Shown here one piece after another: positions 3,001-31,459 of a stretch of 64,000 nucleotides of DNA. Position 1 is the stretch's first letter. Each line of letters starts with the position of its first letter. The notes under the pieces were generated by a model. That model did not search any database. It worked only from the letters and a program-made list of their open reading frames with translations, and had not been told where the DNA came from. The DNA comes from Microbotryum violaceum (lineage: Eukaryota), in contig CDLV01000016.1 in NCBI GenBank assembly GCA_001244265.2, forward strand, positions 682,001 through 746,000. The letters run 5' to 3'. Position numbers and translations under genes: made by a program.

Positions 3001-3649
3001 CTGGCGTAACCAGTTCGTGAACGACTTGGAGCCGTCTAGGCGAGCGTGCTTGGGAAAGACGACTTTTGATGCGGTGGTGGCGGCGGCGGCGGCGGCAGTG
3101 GGCTGCGAGGCAGCGGCGGCAGAGGCGGGGGCGGCAGGGGGCTGCGAGGCCTGCAGGGCGGCGAGCTGGGCCTGCAGGGTAGCGAGTTGATCGGTGATCG
3201 AAGACGCAAGAGGGCTGGGGTCCCTGGGGGACGAAGGCGTGGTGGGGTCGCTATTGTCCATTGTGCAATGGTGCGATGGGTGGGCGGCTCGAGTGGCTGG
3301 GCTCGAGGAAAATGCGAGCGAGCGGCGGGCTGGTAGCTCGTTGGGCTTATAACCTATTCGATCAACTCTACTACGTCAGCGATGTAGTTCTAGCCAAGAG
3401 TGATGAATCATTACAACATACCTATTCGATCAACTCTACTACGTCAGTGATGTAGTTCTAGCCAAGAGTGATGAATAGGAAGCTAACAGTGTGAGAGCCT
3501 CGCGCCCCCAAGTTTCCAGGCTCGCTCCGCGCGCCTAAGTCCTGAGCCGATGCGCCCAGCTCGCTCCGCGCGCCTAGGCCCTGGGCCGGTGTGCCTGGCT
3601 CGATCCGCGCGCCTAAGTCCTGAGCCGAGCGGAGAGTGGATTCCTCACA
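1..3649 (-). mobile_element. Ty1/Copia element, family A, copy 1 (3' part runs off the window)
   Basis: Gag ATG at 3261, zinc knuckle, protease [13 protein letters not shown]-pre-integrase LHRCLGH, integrase [20 protein letters not shown] start. 5' LTR 3355-3649 followed by PBS-like GGTTATAAGCCC. Confidence 0.95.
3355..3649 (-). repeat. Copia A 5' LTR, long form (295 bp, TG...TA) with a 55-bp duplication and ~36-bp GC-rich tandem repeats
   Basis: Matches 15174-15469 and 24578-24880, and the 68-bp shorter LTR at 10332-10558. Confidence 0.9.
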
Positions 3650-6600
3650 CAGGCGCCAGCGGACTCGGGCGTGCGCCCGCTAGGCCGCCCCCTTGAGGTG
3701 GCAACTTAGACTCGCGCAGCTGCCTCGGCGCCCTAGCAAGTTCACCCGCGGCTGGGCCTATCCCAGTGCGGGCCCCTCTTTCTGTTTCTTAGCTTCCCTC
3801 TCACCACTTCTGTTCGACAACCAACCTCTCCTGACATTAGTGGTGATTGTCTCATAGGTTATTTGCCCAACGACCTACCGCTGGCATGGACGACACATCG
3901 CCACCCCTAGCGACGGGTGTCCACCCGACATTTCCCGCCGACCAGCTTGCCGCCCTTACGTCGCTGCTGTCGGGTCTCACCGCTGCCGCGTCCGGCACTG
4001 TCACAACCACCACGTCGTCTAGTACCACCCGCCCCGCCTTTCCCAAGCACGCACGCTTGGCTGGGCCAAAGACATTTGCCAATTGGACACGCCAACTTCG
4101 CCTGTGCCTACCGGACAACATCCGCTCGTACGTCCTCGACGGCATTGTGCCCGTCGACTGGACCCCTTCGCAACGCTCCGCCCGCGATGTCGTGGCCCGC
4201 GAGCTTCTTGCGAACTCGATCGACTCGGCCGAAGTCTCGGCAGTCCTCGACGCAATCCCTACCGCTGACCTCACAGCGCCCAAAATGTACTCGACGCTGA
4301 AATCGCGGTATGCTCCTGACGACGCCATTCGCACGCTCGAGCTCTTCTCCCGACTGTGGAGTTTCCGGCCCATGCCCGGCACCGTTGGCGAATTCGACGG
4401 CTGGATCATGGAGTTCAAAGCTATTGCGCAAGAAATCATAGATACGAAGACCACTATCAACGATGTTCTCGCCACACTCCTCCTTGCCATCGCTCACCCG
4501 TCCCTCGAGAGTTTCAAGGCGTCGTTCACCGATGAACAGCGCACTCAACGAGCTCTCCCTGCCATTGATTCGCTCGCCGACCGCATGCGTGTTCAACTCC
4601 GGTCCACCAACGTCCCCAGCACCCAATCGGCCCTTCTTGCCTCGTCGTCACGTCCTACCCGTCCCAAGTGTCTCGCCTGTCGCAGCCCTTCGCATCGTGT
4701 GGCGGAGTGCCCTGTGAGAGCGAAACACCCGCCGCCAGGACCCTGTCGCTCCTGCAAGCAGAATCACTGGTCTTTTGACTGCAAAAAGGCTCTCGAGAAC
4801 GGCAAGAAGGCCGACACGGCGAACTCGATCGCCGACTCGCAACACCATGTCGGATGTATCGCCACCGGCCTTCTCGCTCGTCGCCGCCAGCTTCGCACCA
4901 ACTCTTTCGTTGTTGACTCGGGGCCACCTCGCACATGGTCTCGGACAAGTCGCTGTTCACGACCTATCGCCACATTGCTCCCACAAAGATTGGAGGCATT
5001 GCAGGGGGCATCAACGCCATCGGAACGGGAAACATCGCCTTCGTTGCCGCCTCAGGCCATCCGATCACGCTCACAGGCGTGCTGCACACTCCCGGCCTAT
5101 TCGTCAATCTCCTCTCGGTCTCTCGACTTTGCGACACCGACGACGTCCGTGTTGCCTTCACGAAACACGGCATTGACATCGACAAAGACGGCAACAACAT
5201 CGCTGAAGGCACGAGGCTCGACGAGGGACTCTACTTGCTCGACGCTGATCATTCCAAATGTCAGCACCTTGCTCTCCTCTCTCGTTCACAGTCTTCCGTG
5301 CCCCTGCTGACTCTCCACCGCTGCCTCGGCCATCTCGCACCGTCGTCCATACAGAAGATGGTTGCCGCTGGTTTGCTGGAGGGTCTCAGGGCCGGATATA
5401 GTGACGAAGAGGTAGAGAAGTTCGTCTGCAATGCTTGCCTCAGTGCCAAGGGCCATCGTCTTCCTTTTCCCGATTCGGATTCGCACTCCTCCGAGAGACT
5501 CGGCCTTGTGCACAGTGATGTGCTTTCCCTCCCGGAGCGTTCCTTGACTGGCAAACGATACCTGGTCACGTTCCTCGACGACTACTCGCGCAAACTATGG
5601 GCCTACGCGATCGGACATAAAAGCGAAGTCTTCAGCGTGTTCAAGACTTGGCTTGCCGAGGTCGAGCTCGAGACAGGTGCAACACTGAAGGTCCTCCGAA
5701 CTGACAATGGTGGCGAGTATTGCTCGAGAGCATTCACAGAGTTCTGCAAGGTGCGAGGTACGCGTTGACAATACTCTATCCCTCGCACGCCTCAACAAAA
5801 CGGTCGGGCGGAGCGGGTCAATTGTTCCATTGTTGAAGGTATTCTTGCCCTTCTGGCGGACGCCCATCTACCCAAGACATTCTGGGAGGAGGCTGCGGCT
5901 TACTTTGTTTACTGCAAGAACCTGGTTCAACACTCGGCTCTCGACAAGGCAACACCAAACTCGGTCTGGCAGGGCGGACGCACCACAGCCTCCGCGCTTC
6001 ACCCGTTCGGCTGTGCGGCTTGGCTCACGGTCGCGCCCGAACTTCGCTCTAAACTCGACCCGAAAGCGGTTCGCGTCCTGTTCACCGGCTACGACCTGGC
6101 TTCCAAAGCCTTCCGCTTCTACGACACTGCAACAAAGAAGGTGACCCTGGGCAGAAATGCTACCTTCCTCGACACCGAATTCCCCGGGTTACGTTGCGAC
6201 TCCGCCGAGCAAGACGATGACACGCACTTCGCCAGCGCTCCCTTTGCCGACCCTCACACCACCGTCAAGTCATGGACCCCACTAGTAAGGTCGGCGCACA
6301 TGGACGTCTCATCCCCTCTTGATGATTCTTCCATGAGCGCCGTTGACGTGGCCCCAGGGTACACTGGCGGATCCTTACTTAATTCCACAGATGCCGAATC
6401 GCCCGCGTCACCGTCGCCTGCGCCGTCCTCGTCACTGCCTCCTGAGCCGGCCTCGTCCCCGTCGGCTGCATCATCGTCCGCGCCCTCACCGTCGTTGGCT
6501 GCATCGTCGTCACCTTCGGCCTTACCCACTGAATCTGAGTACTCCGCCGATCCTCTTGACCTCATCGGCTCACAGCCCCAGGCTCCCCTCGACCCAATGG

Positions 6601-29300: not shown

Positions 29301-31459
29301 GACGGACGCGAGCAATTGGGGAATCGGGGTGGCACTCAGTCAAGGAAAGCAATGGCAGACGGCCATGCCGGCAGGCTATTGGTCACGACAGTACAACCCA
29401 GCGGAAGGCAACTATGCAGCCCACGAGATGGAATTGCTTGCAATTGTGGACGCCCTTCATCACTGGCGGGCGGACCTTTTGGGTGTTTGATTCAAGATCC
29501 TCACAGACCACCACTCCTTGGCGGGCTTCATGAAGCAACCAAGCCTTTCACGACGACAAGCTCGATGGACCGAACGACTGGCCGATTACGACTTCGAGAT
29601 TGTATATGTACGAGGTCCAGAGAACACAGTGGCTGATGCATTGAGTCGTTACTCTTTCCCGGAGGAACCCACAGCCGGCCGCCAGGCGAGCGACAATGTC
29701 AATGTGCTGGCGGAGGCAACTCTCGATCCTGCCTTCCTTTGCAAACTCAGGGACGGTTACCGCAAGGACCCGCAATGTCAACAAGCTATCAAGAACATTG
29801 ACTCAACACCAGGCTACTCAGTCGACAATGGAATCGCACGGTTCGAAGGACGGATCCTCCTGCCAAAGACGGGGAACTTTCAGGAGGATGCGCTACATGA
29901 TGCGCATGATGCCGCAGGCCATTTTGGACTACACAAGACGTATGAACACCTACGCCGCAACTTTATCTGGTCGGGAATGAAGGATGCATGCAAAGATTAC
30001 GTTGAGTCCTGTGCTGCTTGTCAGACAATGAAGATGCATGGCACCGGTTTTGCCGGTCGGATCCACAATTTGAATGTGCCTGACCGGCCAATGCGGGAAG
30101 TTGGCCTAGACTTTGTCGGGCCACTTGTACCTAGCAATGGTAATGACGCACTGCTTACGGTAACAGATCGCCTTTCAGGCTACGTTTGCCTCATCCCCTG
30201 CCGCACGACGGACGACGCGACTACCACGGCGGACCGGTTCTTTGAGGGGTGGCATCGACAGTTTGGCATGCCACGAGTGCTGGTCTCCGACCGCAACAAG
30301 CTCTTCACAAGCGAGCTCTGGCGAGCGTACATGGGCCAGCTGGGAACGAAACTGGCAACATCGACGTCTTTCCACCCACAAACGGATGGCCGAAGCGAGC
30401 GAACGAATCGGACCGTGATCCAAGTCCTGCAAACAATGGTCAACCGACGGCAAAATGACTGGTCAAAGCACTTGGCTACGGTGGAGTTTGTGATCAACTC
30501 CAGTATGAACAGGTCGACGGGGAAGACGCCATTTGAAGTGGTACTTGGGTTCACGCCGGAGCTGACACCGATCACCCCAGTGGAGGGCTCAACCACGTCA
30601 CAGGCAGTCAAATCCATCGTGGAACAACGTGAAGCAGCGGTTGCGGAAGCCCGAGACAATTTGGCAATTGCAAAGATCCGACAGGCCAACCAGAGCAACA
30701 AGACGAGGAAACCGGAGCCCGGGTTTGCAGTGGGCGACATGGTCTTAGTCGACTCGCGGGATCGACGACTGCGGTACAAGGCCGATGGGGAAGCACGGTC
30801 AGCCAAACTCTTTCCCCGGTTTGACGGCCCCTACGAAGTCCTAGCAGCACGACCCGAAACCTCAAATTACAAGCTGAAGCTCAAGGCGGGGGACAAGTCG
30901 CACAACGTCTTCCACGCCTCCAAGCTCCGACGCTGGGTAAAGAACAATGGGTGGTGTTCCCAGGACGAGAGGCAACGGAACCAGCGGCCATTATTGTCCA
31001 AGGAAACGAGGAGTGGGAGGTAGAACGGATTGTGGACGAAAAGGGGAAGGGGTCAAGGAAGAGGTTCTTGGTGAAATGGAAGGGGTGGGCAGACAGCGAC
31101 AACACATGGGAGCCATGCTCACACCTGGAAGACACCGCAGCGTTGGAAGAATGGGAGAGTGGGAAGGCGGGGGGAGGACAAGGCAAGGAGGGGAGGGTGT
31201 AAGGAGGGAGGCGAGTTTGGTTTAGGTGGTGGAGAGTGTAAGGCCCGTGCGCCTGGGCCTTAGGAAGAGGGGACGCGTGCCTGGGCACTCTTAGTCTCTC
31301 TCCAGCGACTGATACGAGTGTCCAGGTGAGCACAAGGTGGATCAGAAGGCATTGTCATACCAGCGACTGATACGAGTGTCCAGTGTCAATTCTACATACT
31401 TTGGTCCTGTGATCCTTGTCGTCATCGCTCAGGTGTACACTCCAACGGGGTGTATTACA
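26346..31459 (+). mobile_element. Ty3/Gypsy chromovirus-like element G2, full length, nested in G1
   Basis: 223-bp LTRs 26346-26568 and 31237-31459 with 2 differences seen. TSD TCCGC. Confidence 0.97.
26665..31202 (+). pseudogene. G2 gag-pol polyprotein (one stop at 29488, one frameshift near 30950)
   Basis: CFSC..H...C knuckle, LADSGA, YLDD, TDAS, HHCC integrase, GPY motif, chromodomain [13 protein letters not shown]. Confidence 0.92.

Follow-up and report, generated by a model that had tools for sequence, protein, structure and literature searches.

This study concerns a 64-kb stretch of the Microbotryum violaceum genome (GenBank assembly GCA_001244265.2, contig CDLV01000016.1, positions 682,001 to 746,000 of the forward strand), referred to below as the window, and a repeat layout in the long terminal repeats (LTRs) of its retrotransposons. 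Microbotryum is an anther-smut fungus and belongs to the basidiomycetes. In the four families named here Copia A, Copia B, Copia C and Gypsy G2, the LTRs showed the same order on the sense strand: a pyrimidine-rich tract, a sequence X, and a segment that was led by a donor-like hexamer and ended in X', a copy of X closing with YAG. What the sequence shows is the anatomy of this layout, its strand and its splice-like signals, that X and X' evolve in concert, and that the layout survives transposition. Judged from the sequence, there is roughly an even chance that the element RNA carries, in its 5' leader, a small spliceosomal intron formed by the segment, straddling R and U5 and regenerated by strand transfer.

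Anatomy of the X-segment-X' layout

As shown in Table 1, the layout X-[GT..X'] was found in Copia A, B, C and Gypsy G2 where the initial annotation, a reading of the DNA letters, had placed it, and it lay on the sense strand, the strand of each element being read from its Pfam domain order. The segments were 58–140 nucleotides (nt) long, began with GTNNGY and ended with YAG. A size of 57–72 nt had been given for them, which agrees with A (68 nt), B (69 nt) and G2 (58 nt); in C it applies only to each of two units (68 and 72 nt), and the whole segment measured 140 nt. X and X' differed at 1 of 55 positions in A1, 2 of 54 in A2, none of 55 in B2, 1, 1 and 2 of 63 in the C copies, and none of 24 in both LTRs of G2. 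The spacers between X and X' (13, 14, 34 and 77 nt) were unique, being repeated neither upstream of X nor downstream of X', and the layout is therefore not a simple tandem duplication (D-D). The pyrimidine-rich tract stood immediately before X in A, B, C, G2 and a further family, Gypsy E. The G+C content of the segments was 38–52%, against 55–63% in 2-kb steps of the surrounding part of the window.

GTNNGY, CTRAY and YAG are the fungal U2-type intron consensus and do not derive from a Microbotryum intron set. The extended consensus, with CTRAY 10–40 nt before the segment end, was complete in A, B and G2 and in the forms of Gypsy E described below. In A, B and G2 the branch-like motif was CTGAC or CTGAT, 13–23 nt before the segment end, and the earlier description of X' as carrying such a motif and AG holds for these families. 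It does not hold strictly for C, which had the donors and CAG and, instead of CTRAY, solely CTTAC. Copies from which the segment was exactly removed had also been reported for A, B and C, and they were confirmed in all three families (Table 1).

The two LTRs of Gypsy G2 were 99.1% identical over 223 nt and both contained the segment. The element was flanked by a 5-bp target duplication, the same five bases standing before 26346 and after 31459. Contigs of the public runs X1, X2, X7 and X10 were compared with the window, and in runs X1 and X10 contigs joined 26340 to 31460 with five shared letters, which is the empty site of G2. The G2 insertion is polymorphic. The presence of the segment in both LTRs, the target duplication and the empty site together indicate that the layout survives retrotransposition. 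Of 22 joints in the contigs of the four runs, 15 were inspected; none of these coincided with a predicted donor/acceptor pair, which bears neither way on expression because contigs do not reveal splicing.

Both LTRs of Gypsy E in the window carried a single X. In contigs of run X10, position 25263 was followed by an insert of 40 or 39 letters, with GTGAGT or GTGAGC at its start, after which the sequence of 25244–25263 or 25239–25263 stood once more; the contig depths were 2440 and 227. The two inserts differed from each other at several positions by eye. To judge from these contigs, which lie outside the window, Gypsy E is a fifth family with the layout, in two diverged subfamilies. Seven LTR families could be defined in the window: the segment was present here in four of them, was present elsewhere in one (E), and was absent in Copia D and Gypsy G2b.

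In A and B the LTR stopped one base before the acceptor G, which lies outside the LTR, and therefore the 3' LTR copy has no AG. In A1 this G was base 15173, the first base after the LTR. In the 3' LTR of A2, X' ended in ATA and the next base was C, so that no acceptor AG was present. A 4-bp target duplication would place the G within the A1 LTR, but the A2 3' LTR speaks otherwise. A1, with LTRs at 10331–10557 (3') and 15174–15470 (5'), was inserted into a B LTR, and five bases were repeated on both sides of it, with the uninterrupted B2 LTR as reference; among the Copia elements, A1 was the one checked for a target duplication, and 5 bp is the usual length for Copia. In B2 the ATG of gag was located at 19948.

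In A and B, the AG|GT that closes X is the junction of the LTR end and the primer-binding site, and the same junction was found in Copia D, which has no duplication. Directly after the LTR, Copia A, B and D had a sequence that by eye resembled the complement of a tRNA anticodon stem-loop and not of a tRNA 3' end; a tRNA scan found no tRNA gene in the 64-kb window. The type of primer site matters here solely by fixing the LTR end and supplying the acceptor G. The spacers of A (15228–15240, minus strand) and B (19851–19864) also contained a tiny upstream reading frame, whose ATG lay inside the donor hexamer and was followed, after two sense codons in A or three in B, by a stop; splicing would take this frame out of the leader. 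The A/B spacer resembles yeast 3'-end motifs as well. A reading of it as a poly(A) signal was dropped, as it does not extend to C, G2 and E.

The 140-nt segment of Copia C consisted of two tandem GT..AG units, GTGAGC..CAG (68 nt) and GTGTGT..CAG (72 nt), with an X of 63 nt and X' inside the second unit. The last ~23 nt of the first unit (7174–7241, minus strand) resembled the end of X by eye, with CTTAC and the final 10 nt in common. The first unit may be an older, decayed X' in which only the splice-relevant end has been kept. In run X2, one contig returned 208 bases within the C LTR (20948–21155), with two other letters between; it may represent a C form with a further copy of X.

Table 1. 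Positions of X, X', candidate introns and control LTRs in the window
Feature	Position	Strand	Details
Copia A1, 5' LTR end	15173..15295	-	X 15241-15295; spacer 15228-15240 (13 nt); X' 15173-15227
Copia A1, 5' LTR candidate intron	15173-15240	-	68 nt; GTATGT, CTGAC 22 nt before end, TAG
Copia A1 structure, duplicated copy	3354..3476	-	Within segmental duplication
Copia A1, 3' LTR end	10331..10385	-	Single X, without segment
Copia A2, 3' LTR end	24759..24880	+	X 24759-24813; spacer 24814-24826; X' 24827-24880
Copia B2, 5' LTR end	19796..19919	+	X 19796-19850; candidate intron 19851-19919 (69 nt); GTATGC, CTGAC 23 nt before end, TAG
Copia B1, 5' LTR end	3803..3857	+	Single X, without segment; duplicate 15622-15676
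Copia C LTR with segment	7102..7304	-	X 7242-7304; unit 1 7174-7241 (68 nt); unit 2 7102-7173 (72 nt); X' 7102-7164
Copia C structure, segmental duplicate	18920..19122	-	
Further Copia C LTR	20953..21155	-	140-nt segment
Copia C LTR (9985-10281) with single X	10003..10065	-	Segment exactly absent
Gypsy G2, 5' LTR (26346-26568)	26411..26492	+	X 26411-26434 (24 nt); candidate intron 26435-26492 (58 nt), X' 26469-26492; GTGAGC, CTGAT 13 nt before end, CAG
Gypsy G2, 3' LTR (31237-31459)	31302..31383	+	Layout as in 5' LTR
Gypsy E, 5' LTR (25161-25333)	25244..25263	+	Single X with CTGAC, ends TAG
Gypsy E, 3' LTR (34209-34381)	34292..34311	+	Single X
Gypsy G2b LTR (control)	45808..45997	+	Spacer-like and X'-like parts kept; without X, without GT donor
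Copia D, 5' LTR (control)	62570..62740	-	A/B-type LTR-end/primer-site junction; without duplication, without CTRAY in last stretch

Concerted evolution of X and X' and the chance expectation

The repeats had been described initially as unrelated between families, which proved incorrect for A and B. The X sequences of these two families matched in 35 of 59 aligned columns (59%), their spacers in 11 of 14 positions and the region after the LTR, which holds the primer site, in 21 of 27; the internal parts of the two elements were ~75% identical. By this homology, the independent cases in the window are three (A/B, C and G2), not four. Within each family X and X' agreed at 54 of 55 positions (A) and 55 of 55 (B), against 59% between A and B, and the donor hexamer in the spacer was conserved between A and B while X diverged.

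Since the spacers of A and B are homologous, the X-spacer-X' layout is older than the A/B split, and since X nevertheless equals X' in each family, the two evolve in concert. Without homogenisation, X and X' should differ about as much as A and B do. The pattern in these sequences points to a step of the replication cycle in which one of X and X' is overwritten with the other. A landing of strong-stop DNA on X' predicts exactly such concerted evolution, and in this respect the comparison of A with B fits the jump onto X' that had been proposed at the outset. If the regeneration reading is wrong, the concerted evolution still calls for an explanation within reverse transcription.

The whole window was scanned for repeats of at least 18 nt with a period of 25–300. 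The scan returned only the X/X' pairs, tandem repeats of 39, 47 and 78 nt in the U3 of family A, and one microsatellite; a three-copy form of X was not found in the window. Eleven repeats were then compared for GT..AG registers, that is, for a removable unit starting with GT and ending with AG. All four X/X' pairs tested in full (the duplicate copy of A, B, C and G2) had exactly one such sense-strand register, located where X ends on its 3' side, and B had one additional antisense register with weak signals (GTTGGT..GAG). None of the six U3 repeat rows had a GT..AG register on either strand, and there was none in the A2 3' LTR. The number of GT..AG boundaries relative to LTR tandem repeats had been set beforehand as a refuting condition for the intron interpretation; they came out at four of four X/X' pairs and none of six U3 rows. 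The U3 repeats that served as this control are ordinary enhancer-type LTR repeats, GC-rich and 39–78 nt long, at 3516–3631, 10425–10540, 15335–15451 and 24596–24720, and their number differed between A1 and A2. A reading of X and X' themselves as enhancer-type tandem repeats of U3 was ruled out by their unique spacers and their position in the 3' part of the LTR.

The chance of such signals was estimated by Monte Carlo simulation, with 60,000 trials per layout and sequence drawn from the window, as the chance per family on one strand. It was 0.08–0.22 per family for GT..AG in any register, 0.011–0.036 when GTNNGY was added, and 0.001–0.004 when GTNNGY, YAG and CTRAY were all added. Multiplied over three to four independent lineages, with the sense strand only, the chances per family gave less than ~1e-6. 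With A and B merged and their AG|GT discounted, the joint chance for three lineages was far below 1e-4.

A proposed leader intron regenerated by strand transfer, and rival readings

On the regeneration reading, transcription would start at X's first base or close to it, immediately past the pyrimidine-rich tract. Pyrimidine tracts precede transcription starts in fungi, and the tract before X fits a start there. The donor would stand directly after X, and the last 20–63 nt of the intron would be X', in which both branch point and acceptor lie. Complete at the RNA 5' end, the intron would be spliced there and would aid expression, as promoter-proximal introns raise expression in related basidiomycetes. 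At the 3' end it would be incomplete: in A and B the acceptor G is outside the LTR, and C, G2 and E would need polyadenylation inside the segment. In the spliced RNA, X would still adjoin U5 or the primer site as before, leaving priming unchanged. Minus-strand strong-stop DNA made on the spliced RNA would end in the complement of X and could pair with either X or X' at the RNA 3' end. A landing on X' would be followed by extension through the spacer, X and U3, giving X-spacer-X' once more in the progeny LTRs; a landing on X would leave the progeny without the segment. In every cycle X' would be overwritten by X, and both would stay identical. Four points of this cycle are inferred: that the RNA is spliced, where it starts, where it is polyadenylated and where the strong-stop DNA lands. 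On this model the sharp 5' edge of X' would mark the RNA start and its 3' edge the splice junction, and the model would also account for the concerted evolution and for forms with the segment occurring beside forms that lack it. For the wider proposal, that a self-regenerating leader intron evolved at least three times in Microbotryum LTR elements of two superfamilies, with spliced RNA as template and the intron rebuilt in each cycle, our confidence is likewise evenly divided.

Several observations weigh against this reading. The initial annotation held that the copy in the 3' LTR stays unspliced; this fits A and B, which have no AG there, but the 3' LTR copies of C, G2 and E hold a complete GT..AG, so that polyadenylation within the segment is required. 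C has no strict branch-point motif. A1 has the segment in its 5' LTR and lacks it in its 3' LTR, a combination that, as we reason, a single slip of reverse transcription cannot yield and that calls for a DNA-level deletion; deletion between X and X' at the DNA level must thus occur, and a copy lacking the segment does not testify to splicing. On comparison with Copia D, A and B owe their AG|GT to the place where the LTR end meets the primer site, and it hence is not independent evidence in these families. G2b, which was 82% identical to G2, keeps the spacer and X' but lacks X and the donor, and the layout is therefore either young or lost in that clade. Furthermore, the intron would persist even with no X' if reverse transcription used unspliced RNA only.

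The last point leads to an alternative that we consider rather unlikely, namely that the leader introns are real and are kept through an unspliced RNA template, as in retroviruses, which package unspliced RNA. X' would then have been born once per lineage by an aberrant strong-stop jump and kept like X by occasional conversions, for example when strong-stop DNA of a co-packaged RNA without the segment landed on X'. Regeneration from spliced RNA would not be the usual route. This alternative uses the same splice signals as regeneration; copies that have the segment and copies that lack it occur in the same genome region, making mixed packaging conceivable, and G2b shows that a spacer and X' are possible without X. 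However, X and X' are nearly identical in all copies of the five families, and set against the divergence of X between A and B this would need frequent rather than rare overwriting; nor does this alternative offer a reason for a copy of X inside the intron in five families.

Somewhat less probable again is an explanation without any splicing, in which X and X' are repeats of the R region whose number varies by misaligned first-strand transfer, template slippage or chromosomal slippage, while the GT..AG boundaries and the motifs resembling donors and branch points arose in some other way or by no particular cause. In its favour are the instability of direct repeats when retroviruses reverse-transcribe, the copies of A, B, C and E without the segment, the DNA-level deletion seen in A1 and the X2 contig that goes back 208 bases in the C LTR, perhaps into a further repeat. 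It does not explain a joint chance of the signals below ~1e-6 on the sense strand, the lack of GT..AG registers in the U3 repeats of the same LTRs, or the conservation of the donor hexamer between A and B despite the divergence of X; both diverged forms of E retain GTGAGY, and the window held no three-copy form. The view that these are ordinary recent tandem duplications, intron-like by chance, is very improbable: LTR tandem repeats are common, and A and B have U3 repeats of 39–81 nt, but the spacers are unique and therefore not D-D, their homology between A and B puts the layout before the split of these families, and the simulation and the register test both contradict it. Regeneration by strand transfer fits well with how the layout is built, with the statistics and with the concerted evolution, which together exclude chance and plain duplication; the earlier interpretation as a whole appears partly supported by the sequence.

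Reverse transcription of spliced RNA normally erases introns, and retroelements are expected to be intron-less or to package unspliced RNA only. If regeneration is true, an LTR element would gain intron-dependent expression in an intron-dependent host and yet pass the intron on, which would be a new solution to intron erasure and a new use of the R-repeat mechanism. It would also explain the variable LTR lengths within the families of transposable elements (TEs) of Microbotryum, and would offer a natural design for intron-bearing retro-vectors in fungi.

Elements of the window and related systems

Nearly the whole window consisted of transposable elements, with a G+C content of 49–63%. The Pfam domain order identified Copia A, B, C and D on both strands, Gypsy G2, E and G2b, and one long interspersed nuclear element (LINE). 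The order rve, SH3_retrovirus, RVT_2 in the open reading frames (ORFs) of A, C and D is that of Ty1/copia, with integrase before reverse transcriptase (RT); in Copia B, Pol_BBD, gag_pre-integrs and rve were detected. The Ty3/gypsy order (protease, RVT_1, RNase H, integrase) was found in the G2 ORFs 26665–29490 and 29518–31023 and in the E ORF 32159–33424, and G2b was placed in Ty3/gypsy by LTR likeness alone. The pol of G2 was interrupted by one in-frame TGA at 29488–29490. The LTR pair of Copia D was 96% identical. A search with the Copia A polyprotein gave 373 proteins at E <= 1e-30, and 118 of the 120 matches listed were from Microbotryum, among them M. silenes-dioicae (up to 93–96% identical), M. 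saponariae and M. intermedium. A protein atlas yielded only generic Gypsy clusters, uninformative as to taxonomy.

In G2, E and G2b the LTR was followed by C and a run of 9–11 T (26569–26584, 25334–25349 and 45998–46013, respectively), and no recognisable tRNA-complementary primer site was found there. Self-priming of the Tf1 type was considered for these three families and rejected, as the start of X was not complementary to the sequence after the LTR by eye.

Positions 1–7722 and 11821–19539 formed a segmental duplication (99.8% identity, ~11.82 kb spacing) that takes in parts of nested A, B and C elements, and the window starts within one of the copies. It could be a genuine tandem duplication or an assembly effect, and LTR copies inside it were treated as duplicates and not as independent. 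An inverted duplication of 2.8 kb (36877–39620 and 46011–48821, 80–97% identical) separated the G2b LTR from the position at which likeness to the G2 leader sets in again, and looks like an unidentified element inserted directly after the G2b LTR. A (TCACT)n microsatellite (48924–49045) stood just ahead of the LINE, which comprised an ORF at 49102–51036, an endonuclease ORF at 51350–52549 and an RT ORF at 52357–55368. A tandem duplication of 1.25 kb (54787–56024 and 56060–57304) had 85% identity.

The red yeast Rhodotorula toruloides is a class-level relative of Microbotryum, and in Schizophyllum commune introns are reportedly needed for expression. Intron removal strongly lowers mRNA accumulation in Cryptococcus neoformans (PMC3744415), and in R. 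toruloides introns modulate promoter strength (PMC5124236). Such dependence of basidiomycetes on introns would explain the benefit of a leader intron, but it concerns host genes and transgenes and not retrotransposons. Genes of M. lychnidis-dioicae have a mean of 5.6 exons, and TE genes were filtered out of the published Microbotryum gene set (PMC4469406); because of this filtering, the layout could, if the regeneration reading is right, matter for TE annotation. A term search found no mention of LTR introns in the available text of two papers on Microbotryum TEs (PMC5381629, PMC4469406). Neither a fungal LTR intron nor its regeneration by strand transfer was found in the full-text literature, a search that left subscription journals and supplements outside its scope.

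A metagenome scan with the Copia A polyprotein returned 96 stretches in 11 loci, with 29–37% identity. Six loci of at least 5 kb were compared with themselves and the LTR regions of five were inspected; none of these five showed an X-spacer-X' layout, which is uninformative, as the loci (35–41% G+C) clearly come from other organisms. Ty5 is primed from a cut in the anticodon loop of the initiator tRNA, and a half-tRNA serves as primer in Drosophila copia (PMC5371799). By eye, what follows the LTR of Copia A, B and D resembles a primer site of this half-tRNA kind. [quoted passage not shown]

The Penelope element of Drosophila virilis has a 75-bp intron 46 bp after the transcription start that is retained on transposition; the intron is absent from most transcripts, and its deletion abolishes reporter expression (PMC2377424). 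Penelope is thus alike in being a retroelement that keeps a small spliceosomal intron in a terminal region through transposition. It differs in belonging to another element class, and the available text describes neither a copy of the upstream exon in the intron nor a strand-transfer route (PMC2377424). A Penelope-like identity of the present elements was ruled out, as the Pfam matches were solely of Copia and Gypsy types, without a Penelope-type RT with GIY-YIG.

In a known model, introns are gained when an exon segment with AGGT in it is duplicated in tandem; it is similar in that the intron end matches the last part of the upstream exon, and the RNA regains its original form on splicing. 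In that model the intron start also repeats the start of the downstream exon, whereas here the spacer after the donor is unique and X and X' have remained identical over a long time. Intron birth by such a duplication was rejected for the present layout, which has no D-D structure. First-strand transfer through the R repeat, and the loss of direct repeats in reverse transcription, are standard for retroviruses and LTR retrotransposons. The likeness is that strong-stop DNA there anneals to the repeat at the RNA 3' end, and two landing sites lead to longer or shorter LTRs. The difference is that here an intron would contain the second landing site and would be rebuilt whenever that site was used. 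The elements with the layout belong to the familiar LTR retrotransposons, but their replication may include a new device.

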